Source: Limnobaculum allomyrinae
GTDB taxonomy: Bacteria > Pseudomonadota > Gammaproteobacteria > Enterobacterales > Enterobacteriaceae
Reading direction: 5' to 3'
Assembly (NCBI RefSeq): GCF_016649425.1
Contig: NZ_JADRCR010000007.1
Coordinates: 151,934 to 215,933, forward strand
DNA: 64,000 bases
In this document: in pieces, positions 9,701 through 43,490 of the stretch
Layout: each line of letters starts with the position of its first letter
Position numbering within the stretch: position 1 is the stretch's first letter
Notes under the pieces: generated by a model
What the model saw: the letters and a program-made list of their open reading frames with translations, nothing else
What the model was told of the DNA's origin: nothing
Database searches by the model: none
Translations under genes and position numbers: made by a program

Positions 9701-10216
9701 AGCCCATACGCTGAGCAAAATCAGTGTCGCACCTACGCTGTTAAAATGAGGTAACAACGCACTATTGATCAAACTACCAATCACACCGCCGGAGGCAAAA
9801 TAGTACCAGTCATCAATACTGATAGCCGACAGGCCACAGGATGAAAAAATCAGAGCTAGCAGCCCGATAAAGCGTAGTGAAAAGGAGAATAGATCAACGG
9901 CTTTCTGCTCACGCTCGTGGCGATACAGCATCCAGCACTGAAAAACGATCATTGGCGGTACGGCATAGGCCAGCACCCCAAAAATAAATAACAGGGTATC
10001 TGCCAGCCAGGCTCCGGTTTCACCACCTATATTATGAATAGGTTCGTGCCAGGCTGTTTGTGACCAGCTAGGGTCGGCAGGATTAAAACTAATTAACGCC
10101 ACCATAAGGTAAATGGAGAAAATAACCACCAATAATAAACCAGCTTCAAAAAGCCGCTGGCGGCTACTTAACTTCTTCAACTTAGGCTCTTTATCTTCTA
10201 TATATTCCTGGCTCAA
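6731..10216 (-). CDS. ftsK: DNA translocase FtsK
   Basis: 1161 aa with N-terminal TM helices, a long Pro/Gln/acidic low-complexity linker, a C-terminal motor with Walker A GTTGSGKS and the gamma domain. Confidence 0.95.
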
Positions 10217-10344
10217 GAAAGGCTCTCCAGGTTACCGTAGTACCGAGTAATAAAACGGCAGCGCCAGGAGTACCCAGCGCTGAAACTGTATGAATACACA
10301 GGAGTGTAACGGAAGTTAGCAGATTTTGCACCTGCAACGATGAA

Positions 10345-10839
10345 TTATCGTGTTTTGATAACTAAGTGGTTACTTTGTTTGACTTCTTCCATTACTACAT
10401 AAGTACGCGTATCGTTTACACCCGGTAAGCGCAACAGCGTCTCACCTAACAGTTTTCTGTATGCAGACATATCTGATACACGAGTTTTCAGAAGATAGTC
10501 AAAGTCACCGGATACCAGATGACACTCCTGAATTTCTTCCAATTTTTGCACAGCCGTATTGAACTGTTCAAACACATCTGCTGCGCCACGGTTTAAGGTG
10601 ATTTCCACAAACACTAACAGCGATGCGTCCAGATAGTGTGGATTTAATAACGCCGTATAACCTTGAATAAATTTTTGTCTTTCCAGACGACGTACGCGCT
10701 CCAAACATGGAGTTGGAGATAAGCCAACGCGTTTTGACAGTTCAACGTTGGAAATGCGACCATCCAGTTGTAATTCATTCAAAATATTACGGTCAATGCG
10801 ATCAAGATCTTTGCTAGGGCGTTTTTTATTGTCTACCAT
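10345..10839 (-). CDS. lrp: Leucine-responsive regulatory protein (AsnC/Lrp family)
   Basis: 164 aa, essentially colinear with E. coli Lrp, with HTH and RAM domains. Confidence 0.95.
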   Translation of the reverse strand: MVDNKKRPSKDLDRIDRNILNELQLDGRISNVELSKRVGLSPTPCLERVRRLERQKFIQGYTALLNPHYLDASLLVFVEITLNRGAADVFEQFNTAVQKLEEIQECHLVSGDFDYLLKTRVSDMSAYRKLLGETLLRLPGVNDTRTYVVMEEVKQSNHLVIKTR

Positions 10840-29809: not shown

Positions 29810-30066
29810 AACCTGACCTTTACATTAACCATTAGCATTTTGCAGATAGTATAAAATAATAATTTATCTTTTAATAAGTTAACTTTACCTGTCTTTAACA
29901 CATTGTATTCCTGAGATTATCCAACCAATCCGGGCAAATATGAGATCCCATTCTTTTTTTGTTGCGAGAAATATCAAAAAAGACTCTATTTTAGCTACCA
30001 AAGCAGGCTAAAACCTGATTTACTTAGGACAATTTTGTAATCGCCACCGTTTGAGAAAGGACTCTA

Positions 30067-30711
30067 ATGACGCTCTTCTTGCAAAACTGTTTAGCTTTTC
30101 CGGTTATCATTTTCAGCGGCCTGTTATTAATCGTCCTGTTCTATTGGATATGTGCTTCTTTTGGCCTGCTGGATATCGATATTCTCAATATTGATGGTAT
30201 CGACGCCGACATTGATGCTGGTGATATTTCCGGCATTGCCGGCTGGATGACTAAACTCGGTCTGGCAGGTATTCCCCTCACTATTATTATCACCTTCATT
30301 ACCTTAATTGGCTGGCTACTCAGCTATTTCACTGTCCATTTGATGCTACGTTTTATTGAAACAGACATTCTCCGTTATCTGCTGGGAACTGTTGCTCTGT
30401 TTCTGATCGGTTTTATTGCTCTACTGATTACCTCATTTCTGTTAAGACCTTTACAACCCAAATTAACCAAAATGAAACAGGGTCAGGGAGTAAAGAATTT
30501 AATCGGTAAAGTAGCTGAAGTGCGTTCTTCCGTAGTCACTGAACAACGCGGAGAGGCCCTGATGGAAGATGGCGGTGCTGGCCTGATATTACAAATTCGT
30601 GCACCACAAGATGCCGAAATAGTCAGAGGAGATCGTGTGGTACTTATCAGTTACGATACGGCAACTAACAGCTATAACGTCGTCAGTGAGCTTGAATTTA
30701 ACCGGCTTTAA
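30067..30711 (+). CDS. NfeD-like inner-membrane protein (YqiJ/DUF1449 family, C-terminal OB-fold)
   Basis: 214 aa with four predicted TM helices then an NfeD OB-fold segment (IGKVAEVRSSVVTEQRGEALMEDGGAGLILQIRAP...RGDRVVLISYD). Sits upstream of the flotillin as in yqiJK. Confidence 0.75.
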   Translation: MTLFLQNCLAFPVIIFSGLLLIVLFYWICASFGLLDIDILNIDGIDADIDAGDISGIAGWMTKLGLAGIPLTIIITFITLIGWLLSYFTVHLMLRFIETDILRYLLGTVALFLIGFIALLITSFLLRPLQPKLTKMKQGQGVKNLIGKVAEVRSSVVTEQRGEALMEDGGAGLILQIRAPQDAEIVRGDRVVLISYDTATNSYNVVSELEFNRL

Positions 30712-30911
30712 AACAGAACATATCTTAATAATCTATCGCAGGAACCTTTGATGAATTCACTGAGTTCCAATACCTTTCCTGCGCCAGATTATTGTATCTA
30801 ATTAGTCGTATGAAAACCCCCTGCTCAACTCAGGGATGAACAAAAGTAACGTAAGGCCACGTGAGACGGTAATTAACCAGTCAACAGCCTGAATAACATG
30901 GAGAAACACCT

Positions 30912-33089
30912 ATGGCTATGGCAGAACTAATGCCGTTCTTAACCATTGTTGCAGTGATCATTGTTGCAATTCTGGGTCTGTTTGGGCTGTTTAAAGCGTT
31001 TTATATTAAGGTGCCACAGGGAACAGCCCTGATCGTCAATGATATGTCATCACAGCCGAAGGTTCACTTCACTGGTGCATTAGTCTATCCGGTCATTTAC
31101 AAGAAAGAGTTTATGCGTATTTCTTTACTGACACTGGAAGTTGACCGCCGTGGTAAAGATGGTTTGATCTGTAAAGATAACCTGCGTGCTGACATTACCG
31201 TTGCCTTCTACCTGCGAGTAAATGAGACTACCGAAGACGTACTGAAAGTCGCTAAAGCTATCGGCGTAGATCGGGCATCCGATCATCAGGCAGTCAGTAC
31301 CCTGTTCAGCGCCAAATTCTCTGAAGCGCTAAAAACGGTAGGTAAGCAATTTGAGTTGGCTAAACTGTTTGAAGACCGTCAAAACTTCCGCGATCGTATC
31401 GTAGACGTTATCGGTAAAGACTTAAACGGCTATGCGTTAGAAGATGTCGCCATTGACTATCTGGAACAAACGCCGAAAAGCTCCCTCGATCCAAATAATA
31501 TCTTCGACTCCGAGGGTATTCGCAAAATTACTGAAATCACGGCTATTCACAATATCGAAACTAACCAGAAAGAGCGCGATCAGGAACTGGCAATTAAGAA
31601 GAAAAACGTGGAAACCCGTGAAGCCAGTCTGGCTCTTGAACGCCAACAGGCTGATGCGGAAGCCCGCCAACAGCGTGAAATCGAAAGTATTCGTGCCCGA
31701 GAAGCAGCCGAAACTCTGCGCGTAAAAGAAGAAGAGCGTTTGAAAGCTGAGCAGGCCCGAATTCAGACTCAGCAAGAAATCGAGATTCGTGAAGAAAACC
31801 GTCTGCGTGAAGTTGAAGTTGCGCAGCAGAACCGTACTCGTGCCGTAACCATTGAAATCGAAAAAGTAACTCGCGCGAAAGATCTGGAAATAGTCTCCCG
31901 TGAGCGGGAAGTTGAGTTACAGCGTATTGAAAAAGAGAAAGCGCTGGAAGAAGAGCGTAAAAATATTGCCAACGTTATTCGTGAACGTGTCGCGGTAGAA
32001 AAGACCGTAGCTCAGGAAGAAGAACGTATTAAAGAAGTTCGTATGGTTTCTGATGCTGACCGTCAGAAACAAGTCACCATTATTCAGGCACAGGCAGAAG
32101 CCGAGCAAGAACTGGTGCGTCAGGTTAAACAAGCTGAAGCAGATGAAAACAGCGCCAAGCACAAAGCGTTAGAAATTAGCACCATGGCTCAGGCAGAGCT
32201 GGAAGCCGCAGCTAAGCAGGCTGAAGCCAAGAAACGCATGGCAGAAGGTATTGAGGCAGAACAGGCCGCACTGGGATTAGCAGAAGCACGAGTTCGTCAG
32301 GCTCAGGCCGAAGCGGAAGAGAAAGAAGGCTTAGTACAGGCAAATGTCACCGCTGAAAAACTGCTGGCTGAAGCCCGTGGTAATCAGGAAAAAGGTCTGG
32401 CACAGGCTCGTATTCAGGAAGCTCAGGCTGCCGCCTCTGAGAAGCAAGGTCTGGCAGAAGCCAAAGTGCTGGAAGAGAAACTAACAGCTCAGGCTCGTGG
32501 TGATGAACAACAGGCTCTGGCGAAAGAAAAACTGGGTCTGGCGGATGCTAAAGTTCTGGAAGAGAAGCTGGCAGCACAAGCCCGTGGTGAAGGCCAGTTA
32601 GGTTCAGCTCAGGCAGAAGTAGTTCGTCAGCGCCTGAAAGCAGAAGCAGATGGTTTAACCGATAAATTTACCGCTATGGGTAACCTTAATACTACCGCTC
32701 GTGAGCACGAAGAGTTCCGTATGCAGCTTGAAAAACACTTCGAGCAGGCCATGGCCTCTATTGCGGCAAACAAAGAGATCGCCAGAGAACAAGCCGATGT
32801 TCTGGCCGCGGCATTAAGTAAAACCAATATTGATATCGTGGGTGGTGACGGTAGCTTCTTTAATACCTTCTCCAAAGCGCTCAGCGTTGGTAAAGCCATT
32901 AATGGCGTAGTCGATAAGAGCCCATTGGTACAAGACGTAGTTCAAAAGCTGATGAGCAGCAAAGAAGGTCAAAAGCTGGATCTGGAAAGCCTGCTGCAAA
33001 ATCCGGAAGTTCGCGATTTAATTCAGCAGTTCACCACCGCTAAAAAACTACCAACTGTTACAACTGGCTCTCGTTCTATTGAAGAGTAA
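30912..33089 (+). CDS. Flotillin / SPFH (band 7) family protein, YqiK-like, with extended Ala/Glu/Gln-rich coiled-coil
   Basis: 725 aa; N-terminal TM helix, an SPFH domain, then a roughly 350-residue EA-rich heptad region and a C-terminal flotillin tail. Confidence 0.85.
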   Translation: MAMAELMPFLTIVAVIIVAILGLFGLFKAFYIKVPQGTALIVNDMSSQPKVHFTGALVYPVIYKKEFMRISLLTLEVDRRGKDGLICKDNLRADITVAFYLRVNETTEDVLKVAKAIGVDRASDHQAVSTLFSAKFSEALKTVGKQFELAKLFEDRQNFRDRIVDVIGKDLNGYALEDVAIDYLEQTPKSSLDPNNIFDSEGIRKITEITAIHNIETNQKERDQELAIKKKNVETREASLALERQQADAEARQQREIESIRAREAAETLRVKEEERLKAEQARIQTQQEIEIREENRLREVEVAQQNRTRAVTIEIEKVTRAKDLEIVSREREVELQRIEKEKALEEERKNIANVIRERVAVEKTVAQEEERIKEVRMVSDADRQKQVTIIQAQAEAEQELVRQVKQAEADENSAKHKALEISTMAQAELEAAAKQAEAKKRMAEGIEAEQAALGLAEARVRQAQAEAEEKEGLVQANVTAEKLLAEARGNQEKGLAQARIQEAQAAASEKQGLAEAKVLEEKLTAQARGDEQQALAKEKLGLADAKVLEEKLAAQARGEGQLGSAQAEVVRQRLKAEADGLTDKFTAMGNLNTTAREHEEFRMQLEKHFEQAMASIAANKEIAREQADVLAAALSKTNIDIVGGDGSFFNTFSKALSVGKAINGVVDKSPLVQDVVQKLMSSKEGQKLDLESLLQNPEVRDLIQQFTTAKKLPTVTTGSRSIEE

Positions 33090-33098
33090 TTGATCGAG

Positions 33099-33136
33099 CT
33101 GGCTACCGTTGTATTTACGGTAGCCAGTTATTTTTT
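33099..33136 (+). terminator. Rho-independent terminator after the flotillin gene
   Basis: ctggctaccg-ttgtattta-cggtagccag followed by TTATTTTTT. Confidence 0.7.
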
Positions 33137-33139
33137 GCG

Positions 33140-33183
33140 TTAACTAAGATAAGCCGTTTATTAAAACGATTTATCTTAGTTAA
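33140..33183. promoter_or_regulatory. Perfect 13-bp inverted repeat (ttaactaagataa ... ttatcttagttaa) upstream of the giant ATPase gene; candidate operator or second hairpin
   Basis: Arms at 33140-33152 and 33171-33183 around an 18-nt AT-rich spacer, roughly 110 bp upstream of the 33292 start. Confidence 0.4.
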
Positions 33184-33291
33184 TTTCTCCGAACACTATG
33201 ATGGCGCTTCACTCTACAGGACGTTTGCCATGATACGGAACAATGACTAACGCGACGAAAGCAAACATTGATCAAGGGAACGTTAAACGCC

Positions 33292-36200
33292 ATGTCAGAT
33301 AACCAAGTGAATAATCGAGATCGAGAATTACTGGATAACGCCGTTGCAGAAGGCGGTGCCTACGATATTTTACGTAAACGTTTATCTGAACAGGGTCAGC
33401 AACTGCATGAAAAAGCCTGGACCCTCAACGAGCGGCGCCTGGCTGAATTTGGCAAAAGCCAGATGGATATCATCGGTCGAATTCGTATTCGTACTGAAAA
33501 TAACTGTGTTGCTCGCGATATCGTCCGCGTTGGTGAATGGCTGCTGTTTGGCTATAACGTATTTATTGGCCTGAAGAAAGAAACCCGAATTGAGGATGTT
33601 TTTTCGCTATATCGTTTAACTGAACAAAACGGGGAGTATGATGTTGAACCCGTTGCACTGAGCGGAACTTTCCTGAACATCACCAGCTTTGTTCAGGATT
33701 TCAATGAGCTTTATACCTATTATAAAAATACTCAACTATTACAACTGGTAGAACGCGACGGTAAACTCCTCGCCAGCTTCCAGATTGGTGAACGCATCAC
33801 TGATATTCGTGTGTTCCGCTGGTCCATTTCCAGCGATAAAAAAGAAATTAAGTACATTGATAATCGAGGCGAACGAGATATCGCTCTGCCACCAGCCTAC
33901 GATTTCGAATGGCATAAAACCACCCGCGAAAATACCGTCAATGGCCGCTATCCACATATGAATATTCTGGATACGGTATTTGTTGAAACGATTGGTGGTG
34001 ACCTGACCATCAAATGTGAAAACAACACCGAAGATGGTCTGGGTATCTACCGGGAAGCCGTTCTGGATAAAACCCAATCGCTGGACGATGCGCAAATTGA
34101 ATATGCACAAACGGGCAGTCTAATCCTGCTGAAGATCCTACCCTATAGGGAAGAAAGCTGGCGCTATCTGGTATATAACACCCTGACACAAACTGCCCAA
34201 CGAATTGATGCTATTGGTTTAGCCTGTATTCAGTTGCCCGAAGATCACGGCATTATTTTCCCCGGCGGTTACTATCTGCAAAATGGTGAATACAAAACCT
34301 TCGACCAGCCAATGACCGGTATGCGTTTTCGCCGTATTCGTCGTTCACCTAATGGTGAAGACGTGCTGTATATTTTTTACGAACCAAATTTTGGTCGCAT
34401 CGCCCTGTTCAATTACAACATGATTGAACGTAAGCTACAGAACCCATTGTTTGGTCATGGTTATGCCATGTTGGAAGATGGCCGCATGGTGCTGTTTGAA
34501 GGCCAGTCAGATGAACCCACCCGCATTCATCCAATGCAAGTTTGGCAAACCCCCTTCTATTCTGATGAGTATGCCGCCCTTCAGCCTGCAAAAAACAGTT
34601 TCTTTGGTCGCATCGGTAATGCGGAATTGGTGCGTGGTATTTCTGACTTGTACCACATCGCCAGAGAGATCGAACAACAACAAATCTCTTCCCAGCTGTA
34701 TGAAAAACTCTCTCTGGATGCTAAACGATTAATTGATATCTATTACTGGCTAAATGATGAACATAGCCTGCATGCCTCCATTTTGCTAAAAGAGATTGCC
34801 AATACCGGTGAGCTGGTACTGGACGAATATGAAAAAGTAGAAAGTATTCGCCGCCAGTCCTCCCGGGCAATGAATGAAGCGACCAGCCGTCAGAAACAGC
34901 TGTTATCCTCCATGCTGCCAGACAGCTGGATTAATGCACAACAATTTGTTGACGCGTTGAATGAACTCAACGTGCAACGTGGTCATCTGATCACCCTGCG
35001 CGATTACCGCTATATTGATTTAGCCAGCCTGGATGAGATGGAACAGCAACTGACTGCCAGTCAGGAGCGTATCTCTCTTGCTACCGCCGAATTTCTCGCC
35101 AGTGAAAAGGCGCTTCAGCCTTTTACCCTACAGCTGCAGGAACTGGAGAAACAGACTCAGGAAGCACGCAACAGCGCCCAACTTAATGAGCCGCTGGCAG
35201 GTATGGATAAAATGTCGGCGGATCTGGATATGTTATCTAATCTGATGGCATCACTGAAATTTGAAGACACCACTCAGCAAACCGGCATTATTGAATCTAT
35301 TTCAGAGATTTATGCCCGCCTGAATCAGGCCCGGGCTCGCCTGCAACAGCGTCGTAAAGAGCAAGGCTCCGTTGAATCTGTCGCACAGTTTGGTGCTCAA
35401 TTTAAGTTATTCAGCCAGGGGATTACCAATGCCTTAACGCTGGCATCAGATCCGGAGCGCTGTGATGAACAGCTTTCACGCCTGCTGGTTCAGTTAGAAG
35501 AGCTTGAGAGTCAGTTCAGCGGCCAGGAAGAGTTTCTTGGTGATATTCTTAGCAAACGTGAAGAGCTGCTGGAAACCTTCGAAACCCATAAGCAATCTCT
35601 ATTAGACGAACGCCAACGTAAATCGCAAAATCTTCAGGTAGCCGCTGAACGTTTATTAGATAGCCTCCGTCGCCGAACGGCTAAATTCCTGACGCTGGAC
35701 GAACTAAACGCCTTCTTTGCCGCCGACCCACTATCGCTGAAAACCCGTGAAATCATTGAGCGCCTGCGGGAGTTGAAAGACAGCGTAAAAGCTGACGATA
35801 TTGACGCCAAATTTAAAGCCGCGCGCGATCAGGCAATACGCAGCCTGCGTGATAAGTCAGAGATTTTCGAAGACGGTGGCAGCGTTATTAAACTGGGGCC
35901 ACGCCATCGCTTTAGCGTTAATACTCAAGAGTTAGATCTCACCATCCTACCTCGGGGTGAACAACTTTATCTGCATTTGACCGGTACTGATTATCAGGAA
36001 CCTATTGATAGCTCAGAGTTAGAGGCACTAAAAGATTACTGGAATATCGCTATTGAATCAGAGTCACCGGAAGTCTATCGGGCTGAGTACCTCGCCTATT
36101 CACTGATCTATGCCGCCAGTAAAGAGCAAGATGGACTGACTTTCGACCTGCTCAAAGCCCAGCAAAATCAACCAGAAATATTAGAGAAAACCGTACGTGA

Positions 36201-38229
36201 TTTCGCTGCCCCCCGCTATAAAGAGGGGTATGAAAAAGGGATTCACGACCATGATGCGGTTGCAATTCTACGCAAGCTACTACCGGTTGGGGAAAGCGCC
36301 GACCTGCTGCGTTTCAATCCACTGGCTCGTAGTCTCGCCGTTTTGCTATGGCAATATAAGTACTCAGAAGAGTTACCATCCCTGTGGCCTGAACGCGCCC
36401 GTACCAGCCTGAATATTAAACAACTATTCCGCAGCGATGCCGGTCTGCTAGACCTACAGGCAGAAATAGAAGCGGAACTCAGTCTGTTTCTGGAACAGTA
36501 CCCTATTCCTTGCCAACCGTATCAGCAGTCACAGGCGGCTGAATACCTTAGCCTGGTCTTGGGGAGAACACCATTAGAGTTCAGCTTTAGCAAATATGCT
36601 CGTACCCTGTCGGAAGGATTACAGGCTCAGTTGGAAAAAGCTCACATGTGGAGTGATTTTAGTCACTCACAACAAAACCTGGGTAATCGCTTATCTCAAC
36701 GTTGGATGCTGATAGAAAACTGGCTAAAGGGATTATGTTCTCTGCCTGAGTATCAGGGACTAACCGAATATATTCCGGAAGCCGTGGTACTGATGTTACT
36801 GGATAAATCAGTCATTACCCGCTTCAGTGAAGTTGATTTACATTTCAGCGTCAGTGACCTGATGGGGGAACACCCTCGCATTCAACAGCAGACGCTAACC
36901 TTAAGTCTGGATGACTATTTCAGCCGTATGCGCTACCAGCGTAAGGTATTTATTCCTGCCTACCAGCGTTATCAATCAGTCAGACAACAAGTATTAAATC
37001 AGCAACGCAATCAACTGCGTTTACATGAGTTTAAAGCACGCCCTCTGAGCTCTTTCGTACGTAACAAACTGATTAATGATGTTTATCTGCCTATCATTGG
37101 TGACAACCTGGCGAAACAGATTGGGGCCATTGGTGAAGGTAAACGAACTGACCTGATGGGGCTACTGTTAATGATCTCCCCACCGGGTTACGGCAAAACG
37201 ACTCTGATGGAATATATTGCTAACCGCCTGGGTCTGATTTTTATGAAAATCAACGGGCCAGCATTAGGTCATGATGTTCTTTCTCTGGATCCGGAGCAGG
37301 CGCCTAACGCTACCGCTCGCCAGGAGTTAGAAAAACTCAATCTGGCATTAGAGATGGGCAACAACGTGATGTTATATGTTGATGATATTCAGCATACTCA
37401 TGCGGAATTTTTACAGAAGTTCATCTCATTATGTGACGGTACCCGGCGTATTGAAGGGGTCTGGAAAGGTAAGACTAAAACCTATGATATGCGCGGTAAA
37501 AAATTCTGTGTTGTGATGGCTGGTAACCCTTACACCGAATCCGGTGACGTCTTCAAAATCCCGGATATGTTGGCAAACCGCGCGGATATTTATAATCTGG
37601 GTGAAGTATTAGGCGGTATGGAAGAGGCATTCGCTCTCAGCTATATCGAAAACAGCCTGACCTCTAATCCTGTGCTGGCTCCTATGGCACTGCGGGATAT
37701 GAATGACCTCTATCTATTAGTCGATAAAGCACTGGGTAAACCTTTCTCCAGTAATGCTCTTAGCCACCAATATAGCGAAGCTGAAATTAGTGAGATTGTC
37801 GCTATTCTTGAACGTATTATGGCTATGCGTGACGTGGTATTAAAAGTGAATCAACAGTACATTGCCAGTGCGGCACAGTCTGATAAATACCGTACCGAGC
37901 CAGCCTTCAAGCTACAGGGTAGCTATCGTAATATGAACAAACTTAGTGAGAAAATTTCAGCCGTTATGAACCCGGCAGAAGTCCGTCGAATCATTGACGA
38001 CCACTATTTAGGCGAGGCGCAGTTACTCACCAATGGCGCTGAAGAAAACCTGCTAAAACTGGCTGAAATCCGCGATATGATGTCCCCTGAAGAAGAAAAA
38101 CGCTGGGCTCAAATTAAGCATGACTTTATGAGGAATAAATCATTAGGTGGTGACAATACAGATATCGGAGGACGGGTTGTTGCACAGTTAGCCGATCTGG
38201 TTGAAAGCGTTCAGGCCTTAAGGAATTAG
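33292..38229 (+). CDS. Giant multidomain protein (about 1645 aa): beta-rich N-terminal region, long coiled-coil/helical middle, C-terminal MoxR/AAA_5-type AAA+ ATPase domain
   Basis: Start chosen at ATG 33292 (aaggga 12 nt upstream); the track's 33268 is a TTG. C-terminal Walker A LLMISPPGYGKTTLMEY, Walker B VMLYVDDIQH, and AAA_5/MoxR-like sensor segment VVMAGNPYTESGDVFKIPDMLANRADIY. Central heptad-rich segments. No recognisable partner VWA domain. Confidence 0.7.
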   Translation: MSDNQVNNRDRELLDNAVAEGGAYDILRKRLSEQGQQLHEKAWTLNERRLAEFGKSQMDIIGRIRIRTENNCVARDIVRVGEWLLFGYNVFIGLKKETRIEDVFSLYRLTEQNGEYDVEPVALSGTFLNITSFVQDFNELYTYYKNTQLLQLVERDGKLLASFQIGERITDIRVFRWSISSDKKEIKYIDNRGERDIALPPAYDFEWHKTTRENTVNGRYPHMNILDTVFVETIGGDLTIKCENNTEDGLGIYREAVLDKTQSLDDAQIEYAQTGSLILLKILPYREESWRYLVYNTLTQTAQRIDAIGLACIQLPEDHGIIFPGGYYLQNGEYKTFDQPMTGMRFRRIRRSPNGEDVLYIFYEPNFGRIALFNYNMIERKLQNPLFGHGYAMLEDGRMVLFEGQSDEPTRIHPMQVWQTPFYSDEYAALQPAKNSFFGRIGNAELVRGISDLYHIAREIEQQQISSQLYEKLSLDAKRLIDIYYWLNDEHSLHASILLKEIANTGELVLDEYEKVESIRRQSSRAMNEATSRQKQLLSSMLPDSWINAQQFVDALNELNVQRGHLITLRDYRYIDLASLDEMEQQLTASQERISLATAEFLASEKALQPFTLQLQELEKQTQEARNSAQLNEPLAGMDKMSADLDMLSNLMASLKFEDTTQQTGIIESISEIYARLNQARARLQQRRKEQGSVESVAQFGAQFKLFSQGITNALTLASDPERCDEQLSRLLVQLEELESQFSGQEEFLGDILSKREELLETFETHKQSLLDERQRKSQNLQVAAERLLDSLRRRTAKFLTLDELNAFFAADPLSLKTREIIERLRELKDSVKADDIDAKFKAARDQAIRSLRDKSEIFEDGGSVIKLGPRHRFSVNTQELDLTILPRGEQLYLHLTGTDYQEPIDSSELEALKDYWNIAIESESPEVYRAEYLAYSLIYAASKEQDGLTFDLLKAQQNQPEILEKTVRDFAAPRYKEGYEKGIHDHDAVAILRKLLPVGESADLLRFNPLARSLAVLLWQYKYSEELPSLWPERARTSLNIKQLFRSDAGLLDLQAEIEAELSLFLEQYPIPCQPYQQSQAAEYLSLVLGRTPLEFSFSKYARTLSEGLQAQLEKAHMWSDFSHSQQNLGNRLSQRWMLIENWLKGLCSLPEYQGLTEYIPEAVVLMLLDKSVITRFSEVDLHFSVSDLMGEHPRIQQQTLTLSLDDYFSRMRYQRKVFIPAYQRYQSVRQQVLNQQRNQLRLHEFKARPLSSFVRNKLINDVYLPIIGDNLAKQIGAIGEGKRTDLMGLLLMISPPGYGKTTLMEYIANRLGLIFMKINGPALGHDVLSLDPEQAPNATARQELEKLNLALEMGNNVMLYVDDIQHTHAEFLQKFISLCDGTRRIEGVWKGKTKTYDMRGKKFCVVMAGNPYTESGDVFKIPDMLANRADIYNLGEVLGGMEEAFALSYIENSLTSNPVLAPMALRDMNDLYLLVDKALGKPFSSNALSHQYSEAEISEIVAILERIMAMRDVVLKVNQQYIASAAQSDKYRTEPAFKLQGSYRNMNKLSEKISAVMNPAEVRRIIDDHYLGEAQLLTNGAEENLLKLAEIRDMMSPEEEKRWAQIKHDFMRNKSLGGDNTDIGGRVVAQLADLVESVQALRN

Positions 38230-38236
38230 AACAGCA

Positions 38237-38809
38237 GTGAAACTGTGGATACAACAGCGCATTAAAATCCTGAGTCTGATAACCGTCATTCTCGTTGGTT
38301 TACAATTGGTGAATACGCTGACCGGTGGGTTTCTGAACCATTTTGGTATTCTGCCCCGTTCAGCCCAGGGATTATTGGGTATTTTATTTTCGCCTTTTTT
38401 ACATCAGGACTGGCAACACTTATTAAGTAATTTACCCATATTGCTTATCTTAAGTGCACTGTTATTAACGCACTCGGTGCGTTACTACATTAGTGCCAGC
38501 GCTTTTATTATTTTATTCGGTGGACTGCTGGTATGGGTTTTTGCCCGTAGTGCTATTCATATTGGTGCCAGCGGCTGGATCTTTGGCTTATGGATGTTAT
38601 TGCTGGCAAACGCATTCACTCGAAGAAAAATACTCGATTTTATTTATGCTGTATTAATTCTTCTTTATTACGGAGGATTAGCTTCAGGCTTGTTGCCAGG
38701 TGCCCCGGATATTTCCACCGAAGGCCATATTGCTGGCGCTGTGGCTGGTCTCTGTTTTGCACTGATAACCAGAAAACTTATTCCAACCAATAAGACAAAC
38801 ACCCCTTAG
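38237..38809 (+). CDS. Rhomboid-family intramembrane serine protease (minimal 6-TM core)
   Basis: 190 aa, GTG start 8 nt after the giant gene's stop. HxxxN (HLLSN), GxSG catalytic serine (GASGWIFG) and TM6 catalytic His (GHIAGAVAG) are all present. Confidence 0.75.
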   Translation: MKLWIQQRIKILSLITVILVGLQLVNTLTGGFLNHFGILPRSAQGLLGILFSPFLHQDWQHLLSNLPILLILSALLLTHSVRYYISASAFIILFGGLLVWVFARSAIHIGASGWIFGLWMLLLANAFTRRKILDFIYAVLILLYYGGLASGLLPGAPDISTEGHIAGAVAGLCFALITRKLIPTNKTNTP

Positions 38810-39008
38810 CTTTATAAAAAAGCTAATAAAATTACATTTCAGGATGATTATCTGCCTAAATCACTGTGAACGCGGCATTATCACAAGACACCCTTATATC
38901 TTTCCCATCAAAAAAACTAATCTTCCGGTTTTAGCTAACAAATTTGACATTAACGTCTTTATTTTACTTTCTGATTACCGCAAACTATCAGCGCTTTATA
39001 CTAGCGTC

Positions 39009-39054
39009 TCGTTCGAAATTAGAATAATTAAAATATACCGCGGTTTCGTTCGAA
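39009..39054. promoter_or_regulatory. Direct repeats t(c/t)tcgttcgaa x2, 37 bp apart, flanking an accgcggt palindrome, 65-110 bp upstream of the PLD-like gene
   Basis: tctcgttcgaaatt (39007-39020) and tttcgttcgaatac (39044-39057); each contains the palindromic ttcgaa core. Confidence 0.3.
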
Positions 39055-39118
39055 TACATAAGTTTTGGTAAGCAGAATCTATTTACTTATCTCATTGATT
39101 TATGGATGAAAGCAGGTT

Positions 39119-39802
39119 ATGGATAATAAAGAACTCGAGCACTATCTTGAAAATACTCTGGCAGATTTAACCTTAAGTCAGAGCGAACGCGTAAAACTGA
39201 GAGAATTAAGTCAGGTTCTGGATACTGAGCAATCTGGATTTATGCGTAATCGCGCTTTTGATTTAGTTCGGGCTCAATTAAATGCCGCACCGGAAAATCT
39301 TCAGCCAGTATTAAAGTGGCTGGAAATGGTGATCAAAACCATTGATATTGCTAACCAACGCCAAAAAGTCACCTCTTCTGCCTGTTTTTCACCGGGAGAT
39401 AGCTGCCGAAAAAAAATCTGTGAAATACTGGCACAAACCACATCAAAAGTAGATATCTGCGTATTTACTATCGCCGACGATATCATTACAGAATCAATCC
39501 TTGCCGCTCATCAACGTCAGGTTCAAGTAAGAATTATTACTGATAACGAAAAATCTGAGGATGATGGCAGTGATATTGAGTATCTACAGCGTAAAGGTAT
39601 TTCGATTGTGATGGATAATAGCCCCTATCACATGCATCACAAATTTGCCATGTTTGACGATCGCTACTTACTCAATGGCAGTTTTAACTGGACCAGAAGT
39701 GCATCCCAATATAATTATGAGAATATTCTTGTAACTGATTCCCCTACGCTACTCGCCTTTTATCAACAGGAGTTTACCCGGCTGTGGCAGCGATTCAGTT
39801 AA
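39119..39802 (+). CDS. Single-HKD phospholipase D/Nuc-like family protein (putative nuclease or phosphodiesterase), cytoplasmic
   Basis: 227 aa; HKD motif HHKFAMFDDRYLLNGSFNWT (HxKx4Dx6GSxN); about 90-aa helical N-terminal extension; no signal peptide. Confidence 0.7.
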   Translation: MDNKELEHYLENTLADLTLSQSERVKLRELSQVLDTEQSGFMRNRAFDLVRAQLNAAPENLQPVLKWLEMVIKTIDIANQRQKVTSSACFSPGDSCRKKICEILAQTTSKVDICVFTIADDIITESILAAHQRQVQVRIITDNEKSEDDGSDIEYLQRKGISIVMDNSPYHMHHKFAMFDDRYLLNGSFNWTRSASQYNYENILVTDSPTLLAFYQQEFTRLWQRFS

Positions 39803-39992: not shown

Positions 39993-41363
39993 ATGAATAA
40001 TAAAATCAAACGCTTTATTTTTTGTAGTGGCATTGTTTTTACCCTGGCAGCCTGTTCGAATCCGCCATCACGCCAAAACTTTGATTACTCACTTTCGCAA
40101 GGACAACTCGAATTAGCGCAGAAAATTGCATTAGAAGAAGGAGTCGCTTCTGACGCAGATATAGCTACTGAGTTGCTATGGTCTCTTGAAGCAGGTTCAT
40201 TGTTGCGGATGAACAGTGAATTGGATCGTTCAACCAAAGTTTTTGATACCAGCGAAACGTTGATTAAAGAAAATGAAACACAAAATCTGGCAGCGTCCGG
40301 ATTTAGTCAAGCCGCTTCGATGGTGGTTAACGATAACATTATGAGCTATACCCCCCGGGTATATGACCGCGTAATGGTTAACACATACAAGGCATTGAAT
40401 TTTTGGCAGCAGGGTAATTTTAATGATGCCCGAGTAGAATGGAATCGGGTTGACGATCGTCAACGTCGTGCAGCTGAGTACTTCTCCAAAGAGATTAATG
40501 CGCAAAAAGATAGTGTGAAGAGTAACAACCTGAGCGATACCTATTCTGGCGCAATGGAAAGACTGGGAGATTCAGGAATTGATGTCGCTAAATGGGCACC
40601 TTACGATGGCTATATCAATCCGGCCTCGCTTTACCTGCACGGCCTGTACTTTTTGATTAATAACGAAAGTGCTGCCGATCTGAATAAAGCCAAGGAGAGT
40701 CTGAAACGTGCCTATGCTCTGACCCGCAGCAAACAGATCCGCGCCGATCTTAATCTTGCTAACGGTGGTCGCAAAGTTGCTCCTGGCGTTTGGATTGTGT
40801 TTGAAAATGGTACCGCAGCTTATAAAGTAGAACGCCGCATTGACCTACCACTGTTTTTAGTGACCAGTCGTGCTGTCTATACCGGTATTGCATTGCCAAC
40901 GCTTGAATCCGGTAGCCCGGCGTATCCTTATCTTTCAGTCAACGGAGGGAGACAAACGGAATCATTCGCCAACATGGATAAAATTATTCAGGGTGAATTT
41001 AAAACGGAATTTACAGGTATTCTGATCAAAGAGTTGACGCGTGCCGTACTAAAAACTGCGGCTCAGGCGTCGATGAGAAACTCTGATAATAAAACCGTCA
41101 GAATACTTGGAGCTCTTACCGGTATCGCCCAAGCGGTCACTACACAGGCAGATATTCGTAGTTGGCATACCCTACCCTACGAGTTTCAGGTAACCTATGT
41201 GAAATGGCCAAAAGATGGGCAGCTTCAGATTAATCCATCAGGTGGTGCTGCTATTCAGGTTGATTTACCAGCAACGCCTCAGCCGGTAGTGGTTTATGTA
41301 AGGGCATTGAATGCGAATACGGTTCCACAGGTCAATCTGTTAACCAGTAAAAACGCAATCTAG
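39993..41363 (+). CDS. Large lipoprotein (456 aa), helical TPR-like N-terminal part; first gene of a three-lipoprotein operon
   Basis: Lipobox FTLAACS; predicted secreted. Start overlaps or abuts an upstream region with no terminator. Followed 44 bp later by the LpoB-fold lipoprotein. Confidence 0.6.
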   Translation: MNNKIKRFIFCSGIVFTLAACSNPPSRQNFDYSLSQGQLELAQKIALEEGVASDADIATELLWSLEAGSLLRMNSELDRSTKVFDTSETLIKENETQNLAASGFSQAASMVVNDNIMSYTPRVYDRVMVNTYKALNFWQQGNFNDARVEWNRVDDRQRRAAEYFSKEINAQKDSVKSNNLSDTYSGAMERLGDSGIDVAKWAPYDGYINPASLYLHGLYFLINNESAADLNKAKESLKRAYALTRSKQIRADLNLANGGRKVAPGVWIVFENGTAAYKVERRIDLPLFLVTSRAVYTGIALPTLESGSPAYPYLSVNGGRQTESFANMDKIIQGEFKTEFTGILIKELTRAVLKTAAQASMRNSDNKTVRILGALTGIAQAVTTQADIRSWHTLPYEFQVTYVKWPKDGQLQINPSGGAAIQVDLPATPQPVVVYVRALNANTVPQVNLLTSKNAI

Positions 41364-41419
41364 CTCTGTTTAACAGGCAGAATTATCATTCTAATCATTA
41401 AACTGTATTGAGAACTTTC

Positions 41420-42037
41420 ATGATGAAAATTTTAAACAAAAAAACGCTTCTTGCTGCGGCTGTTGCTTTCTCACTGGTTGGTTGTGCTGAACAAGGCGCA
41501 TACTATGTTGACAGCAAAAATGACAGCGTAGCAGTTATGGGGCTGGATTATAAAGACTTTGAAATGGCAGCTACCAATATGGTTGATGACATGCTGAGTT
41601 CCGATCTGCTGGTTCATCCTCAGGGTGGTCGCTATGTATTAACCGTAACGGGTATTGTGAACGATACCAATCAGCGCATTGATACCGACCAGTTGACTAA
41701 AAAAATTCGTACCAGCCTGTTAAATTCAGGACGTTTCGTAGTGACTACTGCCATTAACGCGAATGGGCCGGAAGATGAAATGACTCGCAAAGTTCGTGAA
41801 CTGCGTAAATCAAAAATGGTTAACCAAAAAACAGTGAAGAAAGACGGACGTGTTATCGCACCTGACTTCTCATTAACCGGTAAGATCATTCAGCAGAATC
41901 AACGTGTAAACTCCAGCACTCAACAAGTTGAGTACTATTTCCAGCTAACCCTGACCAATCTGGATGATGGTTTAGCCTATTGGGAAAAAGAGTATCCAAT
42001 CATCAAGCGTGGCGACAACCGTACAGCTAGCTGGTAA
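41420..42037 (+). CDS. LpoB / GNA1162 (DUF799)-fold lipoprotein (COG3417-like)
   Basis: Lipobox SLVGCAEQ. Core resembles the LpoB C-terminal domain (LTVTGIVNDTNQRIDTDQLTKKIRTSLLNSGRFVV vs E. coli LpoB LLVDSVNNRTNGSLNAAEATETLRNALANNGKFTLV). Start placed at the first ATG (the track's 41408 is a TTG). Confidence 0.65.
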   Translation: MMKILNKKTLLAAAVAFSLVGCAEQGAYYVDSKNDSVAVMGLDYKDFEMAATNMVDDMLSSDLLVHPQGGRYVLTVTGIVNDTNQRIDTDQLTKKIRTSLLNSGRFVVTTAINANGPEDEMTRKVRELRKSKMVNQKTVKKDGRVIAPDFSLTGKIIQQNQRVNSSTQQVEYYFQLTLTNLDDGLAYWEKEYPIIKRGDNRTASW

Positions 42038-42110
42038 TGATTGTCTGGCGTAATGTTGCGAATTAATTCGCAGCATTACAAAACCAACTTAATCCATTAG
42101 GGATGTCCGA

Positions 42111-43490
42111 ATGAAAAAATGGATCCTGGTACTTGTCGCTTTCTTCGCGTTTTCATCTGCTGCTTATGCAAAAATTGAAACCGTTGAAGCACAAGGATAC
42201 GGTGAAACCTACGAAAAAGCAGTTGATGCCGCACTGGCCGATGCCGTTCGTCAGGTTAATGGAATGACCGTTTCAACACAGTCAGAACGTGCTGGTAACT
42301 ATGTTCGCATCAATGATAAAAGCGATGCTAGTGGTGATGTTAAAGGTACCAGCGTTCAGGACGACCAAAATAAAGATGATTCCTTTCTGAGTAATAAGAA
42401 AGGTAATAGTACTTATACCGAAAATATCAACATCAACGCTGCTGCGAACAGTAATCGTGATGTTACGGTCAATGCCGGCCAGAGTGCACAAATCAATACT
42501 CAAAGTGCGGGTATCGTTAAAGGGTATAAAGTAAAAACCCGTGATTGTGATACTAAGGGCTGTACGGTTGTCTTAACTGTTGAGGTTGATAAAGTTGAAC
42601 GTAAAACTTCACAGGCATCTTCTCAGCGTGACCGTTTAGCCATTATTACTACAGGCAACCGTAGTCGTTCAGCCTTTGCCAATACGCTTCGTCAGGAAAT
42701 CACCGATCGCATTGTACAGTCACAACGTTTTACCGTACTGGATCGTAGTGCTACTAACGAAAAAGCCTTTGCTCAGGAAGAAAAGATGTTGGAAGGCCGT
42801 TCTGATAATGCCGCCAGCGTCGGGCAAACAGCCCTGCTTGCTGACTATATTCTGGTCATCAATGTCACTGAAGCGGGAGTGAAAACAACCACTAAAGTCA
42901 CCAGCGTTGATTTAACCGGTGAGTTTGACGTTAGTAGTTCGCACAGAACCAAAGTAACCGTACGCTATTCCCTACTGGAAGCGGCAACCCATGGTATCCA
43001 GTGGTCTGACTCCAGCGTATTTGAACAGGGTGGCAGATATATTGAAACTGCCCGTAAGCAGATCAGTGATGTAATTGCCGATAAAATTGTCAATAAACTG
43101 ACACCAGCCAAAGTGGTTGCTGTGACTAACGGTCAGGTAGTCATTAACCGTGGTGAAGCTATGGTTTATGACGGTGACCGTTTTGATATTTATTCTCAAG
43201 GCGAGCAATTGGTCGATCCAGATACCGGAGAAGTTCTGGGAGCTGCTGAAGAGAAAGTGGCAACTATCCTGATTACCAACATTAAAGACAAAATTTCTTA
43301 CGGTATTGTTGAAAGCGGTAAGATCGATGTCATCGAGAAAGGTGCTGTTGCTCGTTTAGCTGCGCCGTTACCGAGTGAAAATAAAGCCCCAGCGGCTAAA
43401 AAGACGACGTCAACAAAACCTAAGGCAAAAGCCAAACCGGCCGCCAATGAACAGCGCCTGGGTGATTCAGGCGGCGTGTTTTTGAAATAG
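42111..43490 (+). CDS. Secreted CsgG/LpoB-fold family protein (459 aa) with Lys/Ala-rich C-terminal tail
   Basis: Signal peptide (AFFAFSSAAYAK). Central segment RLAIITTGNRS...RFTVLDRSATNEKAFAQEEKMLEG...ADYILVINVTEAGVKTTT has a CsgG-like pattern. C-terminus is AKKTTSTKPKAKAKPAA. Confidence 0.55.
   Translation: MKKWILVLVAFFAFSSAAYAKIETVEAQGYGETYEKAVDAALADAVRQVNGMTVSTQSERAGNYVRINDKSDASGDVKGTSVQDDQNKDDSFLSNKKGNSTYTENININAAANSNRDVTVNAGQSAQINTQSAGIVKGYKVKTRDCDTKGCTVVLTVEVDKVERKTSQASSQRDRLAIITTGNRSRSAFANTLRQEITDRIVQSQRFTVLDRSATNEKAFAQEEKMLEGRSDNAASVGQTALLADYILVINVTEAGVKTTTKVTSVDLTGEFDVSSSHRTKVTVRYSLLEAATHGIQWSDSSVFEQGGRYIETARKQISDVIADKIVNKLTPAKVVAVTNGQVVINRGEAMVYDGDRFDIYSQGEQLVDPDTGEVLGAAEEKVATILITNIKDKISYGIVESGKIDVIEKGAVARLAAPLPSENKAPAAKKTTSTKPKAKAKPAANEQRLGDSGGVFLK

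Follow-up and report, generated by a model that had tools for sequence, protein, structure and literature searches.

We analyzed a 64,000-nucleotide (nt) stretch of the Limnobaculum allomyrinae genome (assembly GCF_016649425.1, contig NZ_JADRCR010000007.1, positions 151,934 to 215,933; hereafter the window) and found that five neighboring genes in it very probably represent an abbreviated bac-type module, whose BacC, BacD, BacE, and BacF proteins appear from sequence to be orthologous to PA3730–PA3727 of Pseudomonas aeruginosa. Between the genes of the giant ATPase BacE and of BacF lies a rhomboid protease gene, which is predicted to be translationally coupled to bacE. We propose that this module with its coupled rhomboid acts in envelope stress or membrane maintenance, a reading to which we assign a probability of roughly 0.6. 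All five genes named in a preliminary description of the sequence were recovered as plus-strand open reading frames (ORFs) at the coordinates listed in Table 1.

The P. aeruginosa locus consists of genes for DUF2170, PspA, a protein of 213 amino acids (aa), a protein of 688 aa, the ATPase (1746 aa), and a PLDc_2 protein, near yaeQ, recJ, and an M4 peptidase gene. Judged by homology and gene order, it is bacABCDEF (PA3732–PA3727; PA14_16140–16200), which was reported to be a six-gene operon by reverse transcription polymerase chain reaction and for which a sigma-54 promoter upstream of bacA was proposed. Mutants of the P. aeruginosa bac genes show defects in biofilm formation, rhamnolipid production, and virulence, and a transcriptome study found PA3728–PA3732 upregulated in every phage-infected P. 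aeruginosa sample. The window has the same BacC-BacD-BacE-BacF order and orientation, with 42%, 74%, 68%, and 50% identity, respectively. In contrast to P. aeruginosa, it lacks BacA (DUF2170), BacB (PspA), and the sigma-54 element, has hairpins between bacD and bacE, and carries the rhomboid gene between bacE and bacF. The preliminary description had regarded the module as undescribed; however, Ravi et al. 2024 (mSystems 9:e00847-23) defined this operon class by comparative genomics as one with a CesT/Tir-PspA dyad, a Band-7 flotillin, a novel AAA+ protein, and a YqiJ/YuaF-like protein with three transmembrane (TM) segments, and reported an HKD phospholipase D (PLD) in some Proteobacteria as well as widespread abbreviated operons without the PspA dyad. 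Since no tblastn match to DUF2170 or PspA was detected within the 64-kb window, the locus corresponds to their abbreviated form.

The surroundings of the ATPase gene were compared in 80 genome loci around homologs and three direct look-ups (83 loci in total). Contexts were assigned from tblastn searches with a small number of query sets, and the 80-locus samples, both this one and the metagenomic one described below, are made up of the best-scoring loci, not of random ones. In all 80 loci that include upstream DNA, a flotillin gene was located directly upstream of the ATPase gene, even at 44% identity in a metagenome-assembled genome (MAG) of Lentisphaerae, and a BacC-like gene was present in 79 of them, being cut off by the contig end in the remaining one. 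The same order was seen in annotated records of Streptomyces (‘flotillin family protein’) and Hymenobacter (‘chaperone Tir’, PspA, DUF1449, a 722-aa protein, ATPase), and in Deinococcus two unnamed genes upstream of the ATPase gene are alike by size alone. These results demonstrate that BacC-BacD-BacE is a genuine conserved unit whose members are invariably linked, and the view that the flotillin pair and the giant ATPase belong together was borne out. The PspA dyad was present in about a third of the 83 loci, including those of Pseudomonas, part of the Lysobacteraceae, Gilliamella, Oleispira, and Marinicella, and absent from Stenotrophomonas, Budviciaceae, and Providencia, as well as from Proteus and Morganella loci that were looked up in addition.

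The 3' side of the ATPase gene was variable: it was followed by nothing related, by a PLD gene, by a rhomboid and then a PLD gene, by a rhomboid gene alone, or, in Xanthomonadales, by genes for a helical protein and TelA. A PLD gene was found in 26 of the 83 loci. In the Xanthomonadales arrangement, seen in Stenotrophomonas and some Lysobacteraceae (L057 15331–17192; L055 15259–17105), the ATPase gene precedes genes for an Ala/Leu/Gln-rich helical protein of ~235–250 aa and for TelA (PF05816), and in two loci (L055 and L071) a PLD gene comes next after TelA; this pair is another accessory arm of the system. The ~235-aa gene after bacE in Xanthomonadales was considered as a hidden rhomboid and rejected, as it encodes a soluble helical protein. 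In Proteus mirabilis (L169 2747–4518), BacC-BacD-BacE is preceded by two divergently oriented genes, one of the LemA family and one encoding 392 aa.

Within the 80 genome loci, a rhomboid homolog (46–70% identity) directly followed the ATPase gene in 11, from Budviciaceae, Providencia, and seven Pseudomonas/Phytopseudomonas species, and none was found next to it in the loci of P. aeruginosa, Gilliamella, and Xanthomonadales. With the metagenomic loci included, a rhomboid directly behind BacE was counted in 45 loci, which belong to Enterobacterales, Pseudomonadales, Cellvibrionales, and many lineages from metagenomes, with a median spacer of 6 nt (20 nt or less in 39 of the 45) and overlapping genes in 13. 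The preliminary description had named the rhomboid and the PLD as partners of the ATPase, and both do recur. The gene order argues that the rhomboid is a recurrent partner of the ATPase and not a chance neighbor. In the window, the bacE stop codon (TAG, 38227–38229) is separated from the GTG start codon of the rhomboid gene by a 7-nt spacer, not 8 nt as first described, and an AAGGA sequence lies 11 nt upstream of the GTG; the direct succession that had been reported was confirmed.

The rhomboid protein matched the Pfam Rhomboid model with 71.8 bits (cut-off 22.6) and, by eye, has the six hydrophobic stretches of a minimal rhomboid. It is complete, as previously noted, with all three motifs: HLLSN, which is an instance of HxxxN (H61-x3-N65), GASG with the putative catalytic Ser112 (G110-A-S112-G113), and GHIAG with His164. 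In a family alignment of 21 sequences, H56, H61, N65, G110, G113, and H164 were invariant and S112 was kept in 20; the conserved catalytic dyad fits a rhomboid intramembrane serine protease (MEROPS S54, PF01694). The sole exception, P0317 from an uncultured Moellerella MAG, has GAGG in place of GASG, a sequencing error or a pseudoprotease. The protein is 100% identical to one from ‘Budviciaceae bacterium BWR-B9’. Its nearest solved structure is Haemophilus influenzae GlpG, with only 25.8 bits. Assignment to the rhombosortases (TIGR03902) was rejected at 27.8 bits against an equivalog cut-off of 84.

Relatives of the rhomboid extend to a second kind of operon. Five distant homologs (42–52% identity) were looked up, and all five were embedded in DUF2170-PspA operons. 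Two of them follow BacE, one in Teredinibacter, where genes for a SEC-C-containing M90 peptidase and for a zinc-ribbon protein come next, the other with genes for a PLD and a zinc-ribbon protein. The remaining three come directly after PspA in operons of the order DUF2170-PspA-rhomboid-DUF2491-DUF350-DUF1190-GSP_synth (yjfIJKLMC-type). In a metagenome scan with a family profile, 31 of 80 rhomboid loci had the gene directly after BacE, 18 directly after PspA, and 31 after neither; in the 69 loci with at least 800 nt of upstream sequence, the corresponding numbers were 23, 17, and 29. The rhomboid gene thus directly follows PspA in yjfIJKLMC-type operons of Pseudomonas putida, P. luteola, and relatives in a total of 21 loci: three that were looked up (L085, L087, and L088, at about 10001–10560) and 18 metagenomic ones (for example, L103, L108, and L127). 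In marine gammaproteobacterial loci (L084 10567–11955; L086 11295–11834; L113 and L119–L123), the genes behind the rhomboid encode an M90 (MtfA-like) metallopeptidase carrying a SEC-C motif, a zinc-ribbon protein of ~177 aa, or both; the metallopeptidase is a predicted second protease of these operons.

A distance tree (neighbor-joining (NJ), not likelihood) placed the after-PspA rhomboids in one clade and spread the after-BacE copies over the rest of the tree. Stand-alone rhomboids nested among the operon copies, and a low-GC (guanine plus cytosine) and a ~51%-GC group of them, which we take to be Proteus- and Morganella-like, fell inside the Enterobacterales group. Because stand-alone copies are nested within operon-embedded ones, the tree suggests that the rhomboid family originally stood after BacE and that copies relocated afterward; in line with this, the bacE loci of Proteus and Morganella hold BacC-BacD-BacE only. 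The rhomboid link is mentioned neither in the text and supplement of Ravi et al. 2024 nor in Popp et al. 2022, and a full-text literature search on rhomboids together with PspA, flotillin, SPFH, or YqiK returned nothing relevant. The coupled rhomboid in a bac-type operon and the presence of the same rhomboid family in a second PspA operon class are thus apparently new.

The two membrane proteins encoded upstream of BacE had been described as an NfeD-flotillin pair. BacC is an inner membrane protein that combines ~3 TM segments with an acidic loop and a soluble beta domain at its C-terminus. It had no Pfam or NCBIfam match, the YqiJ and NfeD models included; a profile of 15 orthologs aligned with Escherichia coli YqiJ in hhalign (probability 91.5%, E = 8.6e-7), which suggests a remote relative of YqiJ and the ‘short NfeD’ proteins. 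In the literature, the P. aeruginosa ortholog has been termed a ‘short NfeD’ and its partner flotillin PaFlo3. BacD, 74% identical to PaFlo3, has an N-terminal TM anchor, an SPFH/Band-7 domain, a long Ala/Glu/Gln-rich coiled coil, and a C-terminal flotillin-like tail. No Pfam match was obtained with the whole-length protein, and Band_7 (32.1 bits, cut-off 23.6) was matched only when the N-terminal 219 aa were searched alone; BLASTP aligned BacD with E. coli YqiK at 30% identity across 444 aa (E = 6e-48). The flotillin half of the earlier label therefore holds, and its NfeD/YqiJ half is backed by the hhalign alignment and the literature, not by Pfam or NCBIfam.

BacE consists of an N-terminal helical hairpin, a beta-propeller-like DUF3686 domain, a helical and coiled-coil middle region (DUF7902), and a C-terminal AAA+ module that takes up ~25% of the 1645 aa. 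Pfam matches of 677 bits to DUF3686 (aa 46–493) and 94 bits to DUF7902, beside 27 and 25 bits to AAA and AAA_5, correct the earlier statement that the ATPase is the only recognizable domain. The start codon was set at the ATG listed in Table 1 because it gives the length of a 98%-identical homolog; the mechanically called ORF opens at a TTG at 33268. The motifs GYGKTT, VMLYVDDIQH, and AGNPYTESGDVFKIPDMLANRADIY were all found in the sequence, and the AAA+ module contains the Walker A motif GPPGYGKTT, the Walker B residues ‘DD’, and a beta-hairpin before sensor 1. Across 13 homologs with 33–48% identity, Walker A was invariant except for its final Thr (12 of 13), and Walker B (aa 1364–1365) was an invariant Asp-Asp, not Asp-Glu, in homologs down to 33% identity. 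The MoxR-type label first given to the ATPase is plausible in that its MoxR-like sensor-1 motif is real; however, the motif is not decisive, and no VWA domain was found among the neighbors in the window or in the related loci examined. In addition, the middle region contains a conserved ‘EGYEKGIHDHDA’ motif at aa 979–989 (GIHDHDA), in which G983, H985, D986, D988, and A989 are invariant and which could be a metal or catalytic site.

Structure prediction of the N-terminal 535 aa of BacE yielded a helical hairpin, then a beta-rich domain of ~360 aa, and finally a helical bundle (predicted local distance difference test (pLDDT) 83.6, predicted template modeling score 0.81), and that of the C-terminal 431 aa an AAA+ core with the beta-hairpin before sensor 1, a helical lid, and tail domains (pLDDT 75.9). 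The alignments behind these models were shallow (24 rows, 43–93% identity), and little diversity was gained from a third round of searching, in which a profile built from distant homologs recovered nearly the same close set. Searches of the PDB with the whole protein and with a 13-sequence profile found only the nucleotide-binding stretches of AAA+ proteins, together with a weak, non-significant match of profile positions 571–683, in the DUF7902 region, to the Habc three-helix bundle of syntaxin-1A (E = 0.012). Similarity to p97 was confined to the nucleotide-binding part, with a best stretch at aa 1300–1386 (~21 bits) and, in the profile search, to Walker A only. Homologs of BacE number in the thousands, under the NCBI name ‘DNA repair ATPase’: identity is 98% in Limnobaculum xujianqingii, 75% in Proteus, Providencia, and Morganella, 70% in Gilliamella, and 68% over the full length in P. 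aeruginosa PA3728, whose protein cluster has 3,222 member sequences, and a library of 1.8 billion proteins contains ~900 clusters of the family at 50% identity. Among 50,697 phage records there was no match, and plasmid or chromid records with a match numbered only 13.

BacF is a single-HKD PLD (Pfam PLDc_2, 103 bits) that carries the HxK(x4)D and GSxN elements as HHKFAMFD and GSFN. A ~95-aa helical region precedes this domain, and the protein is presumably cytoplasmic because it has neither a signal peptide nor a TM segment. The best PDB sequence matches of BacF were MitoPLD/Zucchini structures (100.7 bits; 9lkx, E = 9e-28; 4ggj, E = 2e-24). Matches to Nuc-type structures (1byr and 6ehi) were much weaker, with 38.6 bits and an E value of 1e-8 for Nuc and of 8e-8 for NucT. 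The earlier description as a PLD/Nuc-like protein is therefore correct as to the single-HKD PLD, whereas MitoPLD/Zucchini is closer than Nuc, and the nuclease output suggested for the module is left without support. The best solved relative is named ‘mitochondrial cardiolipin hydrolase’, and it is for this reason that we favor a lipid substrate for BacF.

The five genes are arranged with several potential signals between them. In the bacD-bacE gap, a terminator scan detected a terminator-like hairpin with a 13-bp stem and a T-run (33097–33129), which is followed by a ~20-bp palindrome (33140–33183); the segment 33085–33200 folds with −44.7 kcal/mol (z = −8.2), and the hairpins are partly conserved in Pragia. 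From sequence and predicted folding, they probably serve attenuation or differential expression of the scaffold versus the ATPase, and they may set a scaffold-high, ATPase-low ratio. A 310-nt non-coding, AT-rich gap precedes bacF; a 75-codon ORF in it (38844–39071) was rejected as a gene since it is not conserved even in Pragia. No sigma-54 −24/−12 element (TGGCAC-N5-TTGC-like, at most 2 mismatches) was found upstream of bacC in 29810–30066, the only match close by, with 2 mismatches, lying inside the ORF; a weak sigma-70-like site is present at 29832–29860. No known RNA family was detected in the block with Rfam at E ≤ 0.1. By this layout, bacE and the rhomboid gene are the tightly coupled pair of the block, and bacCD and bacF may be expressed at other levels or from their own signals.

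Table 1 Features of the bac-type block in the window (window coordinates)
Feature	Coordinates	Strand	Description
bacC-like gene	30067..30711	+	214 aa; ORF; multi-TM N-terminus, then soluble C-terminal domain
bacD-like flotillin gene	30912..33089	+	725 aa; ORF; Band_7 and homology
Hairpin pair between bacD and bacE	33097..33183	+	terminator scan and RNA fold
bacE-like gene	33292..38229	+	1645 aa from ATG; Pfam DUF3686, DUF7902, AAA/AAA_5
Rhomboid gene	38237..38809	+	190 aa; GTG start; Pfam Rhomboid
bacF-like gene	39119..39802	+	227 aa; single-HKD PLD; Pfam PLDc_2

In Budviciaceae, the block occupies one chromosomal site between ybjT/amiD and a lipoprotein/LpoB-like cluster, which therefore indicates vertical inheritance there and no mobile island. 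Upstream, amiD adjoins the block at the place where full-length operons carry the DUF2170-PspA dyad. Neither megablast with the whole ATPase gene nor blastn with its last 1293 bases gave a match in 5,426 complete E. coli genomes, in agreement with the earlier remark that the block is missing from the equivalent amiD-ybjP interval of E. coli. Downstream, 39993–43490 encode a 456-aa predicted lipoprotein (no Pfam match), an LpoB-family protein (TIGR02722, 159 bits, cut-off 110.55), and a 459-aa protein (no Pfam match). Membership of this trio in the system was rejected, as its synteny is confined to Budviciaceae and no link to Bac proteins was found elsewhere.

For the way in which the module acts, we offer the following scheme, which as a whole is tentative and has somewhat less than an even chance of being right. 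BacD and BacC would form an SPFH scaffold at the cytoplasmic face of the inner membrane, to which BacE would be recruited through its propeller and coiled coils. Using ATP, BacE could remodel or disassemble the scaffold or PspA-type assemblies, or pull membrane proteins. Under membrane stress, the rhomboid would clip the TM segments of one or more clients in or near the scaffold domain, and BacF would alter the local lipid, most plausibly by converting cardiolipin to phosphatidic acid. The role in membrane integrity, already entertained in the preliminary description, fits the frequent DUF2170-PspA dyad and the induction of PA3728–PA3732 by phage.

Several observations weigh against this proposal. 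We know of no biochemical function for any Bac protein, and the motifs do not settle the AAA+ clade of BacE, whose Walker B is DD and not DE. MitoPLD/Zucchini is regarded as an RNA nuclease, and whether its substrate is lipid or nucleic acid is debated, so that the lipid reading of BacF is not secure. Because of the hairpins and the 310-nt gap, the five genes may not form one simple transcript. The P. aeruginosa flotillin (PaFlo3) mutant was reported to form only ~20% less biofilm. Furthermore, the neighborhood comparison, which the preliminary description had put forward as a refuting test, gave a divided answer: the flotillin is always upstream (80 of 80), whereas 69 of the 80 genome loci of ATPase homologs have no adjacent rhomboid. 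The rhomboid is for that reason accessory and not core, an optional arm of the system.

Also against the proposal stand the observations that favor the main alternative, in which the rhomboid, a protease for general housekeeping or quality control, shares the transcript of the stress operon solely for co-regulation and has no specific functional or physical tie to the flotillin, BacE, or PspA. About 29 of the 69 informative rhomboid relatives occur in unrelated contexts, next to genes for a pseudouridine synthase, a K+ transporter, GroEL, or an ROK kinase. Proteus and Morganella keep BacC-BacD-BacE together and a close relative of the rhomboid elsewhere in the genome, which means that the rhomboid can function away from the module. 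The rhomboid contexts do not all share any one protein encoded in the operon, so that no substrate is implied, and BacD itself was rejected as an obvious substrate, its N-termini (extension and TM segment) being alike in operons with and without the rhomboid. On the other hand, co-regulation alone accounts poorly for the position after bacE in 45 loci over several lineages, with its median spacer of 6 nt and its 13 stop-start overlaps, or for the recruitment of a sister rhomboid clade into a second kind of PspA operon, and the nesting of stand-alone copies within operon-embedded ones in the NJ tree suggests secondary relocation. We therefore consider this alternative unlikely, although it is the strongest of those weighed here.

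An anti-phage abortive infection system, in which the flotillin and ATPase would sense phage damage to the membrane, the rhomboid would release a signal, and an HKD nuclease would be the effector, is improbable. Phage infection does induce PA3728–PA3732, the PLD weakly matches the DISARM DrmC and DpdK models, and single-HKD proteins of the Nuc type, to whose structures 1byr and 6ehi BacF has matches, can be nucleases. However, induction by phage is by definition a PspA-type stress response, and PADLOC-DB 2.0 gave no system-level match: the two membrane proteins and the rhomboid had no match, the ATPase matched at the level of the P-loop (18 bits), and the PLD matched generically (DrmC, 41.7 bits; the NCBIfam DrmC model gave 28.5 bits against a cut-off of 133). 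In addition, BacE is highly conserved, as its Budviciaceae and Pseudomonas versions share 68% identity along some 1640 aa and the P. aeruginosa protein cluster has 3,222 members, most operons lack both the PLD and the rhomboid, and the block is syntenic and vertically inherited at its fixed site within Budviciaceae, and the ATPase occurs in none of the 50,697 phage records and in no more than 13 records of plasmids or chromids. The suggestion of an abortive system in the preliminary description is accordingly not sustained. The least probable alternative is a DNA-repair ATPase with an associated nuclease, which is prompted by the names in NCBI (‘DNA repair ATPase’) and in Pfam (‘ATPase involved in DNA repair’ for DUF3686), a P-loop that weakly resembles that of RuvB, the Nuc-superfamily neighbor, and the proximity of recJ in P. 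aeruginosa, and is opposed by the lack of any detected DNA-binding or nuclease domain in the 1645 aa of BacE, by RuvB matches that cover Walker A only (16.8–20.1 bits against 27 for Pfam RuvB_N and 282–299 for the NCBIfam equivalogs), by invariable partners that are two membrane proteins and often PspA, and by the lack of any mention of DUF3686 in the literature searched, in which the name has no traceable experimental basis.

To our knowledge, what rhomboid proteases do physiologically in bacteria is clear in only a few cases, such as AarA with TatA, YqgP with MgtE, and GlpG with orphan subunits. The repeated and tight embedding of one rhomboid subfamily in two types of PspA/flotillin envelope-stress operon indicates where substrates and inducing conditions might be sought. 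It would add a proteolytic arm to the Bac system, which spans several phyla, belongs to the biofilm and virulence repertoire of P. aeruginosa, and is induced by phage. Beyond an action of the module in envelope stress or membrane maintenance, the composition of the rhomboid-bearing bac operons raises a further reading, speculative and unlikely at present, as a bacterial counterpart of the proteolytic hubs of SPFH scaffold, rhomboid, and AAA+ protein in eukaryotes (SLP2-PARL-YME1L and Erlin-RHBDL4-p97). In that case, a flotillin/NfeD cage would gather damaged or regulatory membrane proteins, which the rhomboid would clip; BacE, held at a fixed ratio to the rhomboid by translational coupling, would extract or unfold the fragments or reset the scaffold or PspA polymer; and the MitoPLD-like enzyme would tune cardiolipin in the same patch. 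If true, this would be the first ATP-driven, scaffold-organized system of intramembrane proteolysis in bacteria and would give the whole rhomboid subfamily a role.

Compared with the class of Ravi et al. 2024, the window contains the flotillin, the AAA+ protein, the YqiJ/YuaF-like protein, and the optional PLD and lacks the dyad, as well as the sigma-54 promoter reported for P. aeruginosa bacA; the coupled rhomboid is extra here, and the same rhomboid family occurs in the polyamine-type yjfIJKLMC PspA operons. E. coli YqiJ-YqiK and Bacillus subtilis YuaF-FloT also place a flotillin behind a small multi-TM protein that ends in a beta domain, whereas no ATPase, rhomboid, or PLD gene follows yqiJ-yqiK in E. 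coli K-12 and the coiled coil of BacD is ~170 aa longer. HflK/C-FtsH and stomatin-NfeD(ClpP-like) likewise pair an SPFH scaffold genetically with a membrane-associated protease and ATPase activity; in the bac-type module, however, ATPase and protease are separate and belong to unrelated families, and the protease is intramembrane and optional. BacE differs from MoxR (AAA_5) in its Walker B DD, in the restriction of the ATPase to the C-terminal quarter of the protein, and in having no VWA partner nearby.

BacF shares the single HKD motif with MitoPLD/Zucchini (PLD6), its closest sequence among solved structures, whereas its ~95-aa helical N-terminal region is different and it has no membrane anchor. 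Since BacF is far nearer to these animal enzymes than to bacterial Nuc and NucT, the question arises whether PLD6-type enzymes derive from this bacterial membrane-stress context. SLP2-PARL-YME1L in mitochondria and Erlin1/2-RHBDL4-p97 in the endoplasmic reticulum were reported to be physical complexes that process membrane or aggregation-prone proteins. Their component kinds, an SPFH scaffold, a rhomboid, and an AAA+ protein, are those of the bac-type module, a resemblance in composition alone: BacE, unlike YME1L, is not a protease and showed no specific relation to p97, the rhomboid is of the minimal six-TM kind, and common descent is not indicated. Cardiolipin stimulates PARL, and a MitoPLD-like enzyme is part of the bacterial cluster; if the likeness to the mitochondrial and endoplasmic reticulum hubs holds, tractable bacteria could serve as a model for cooperation among a scaffold, an intramembrane protease, and an ATPase.

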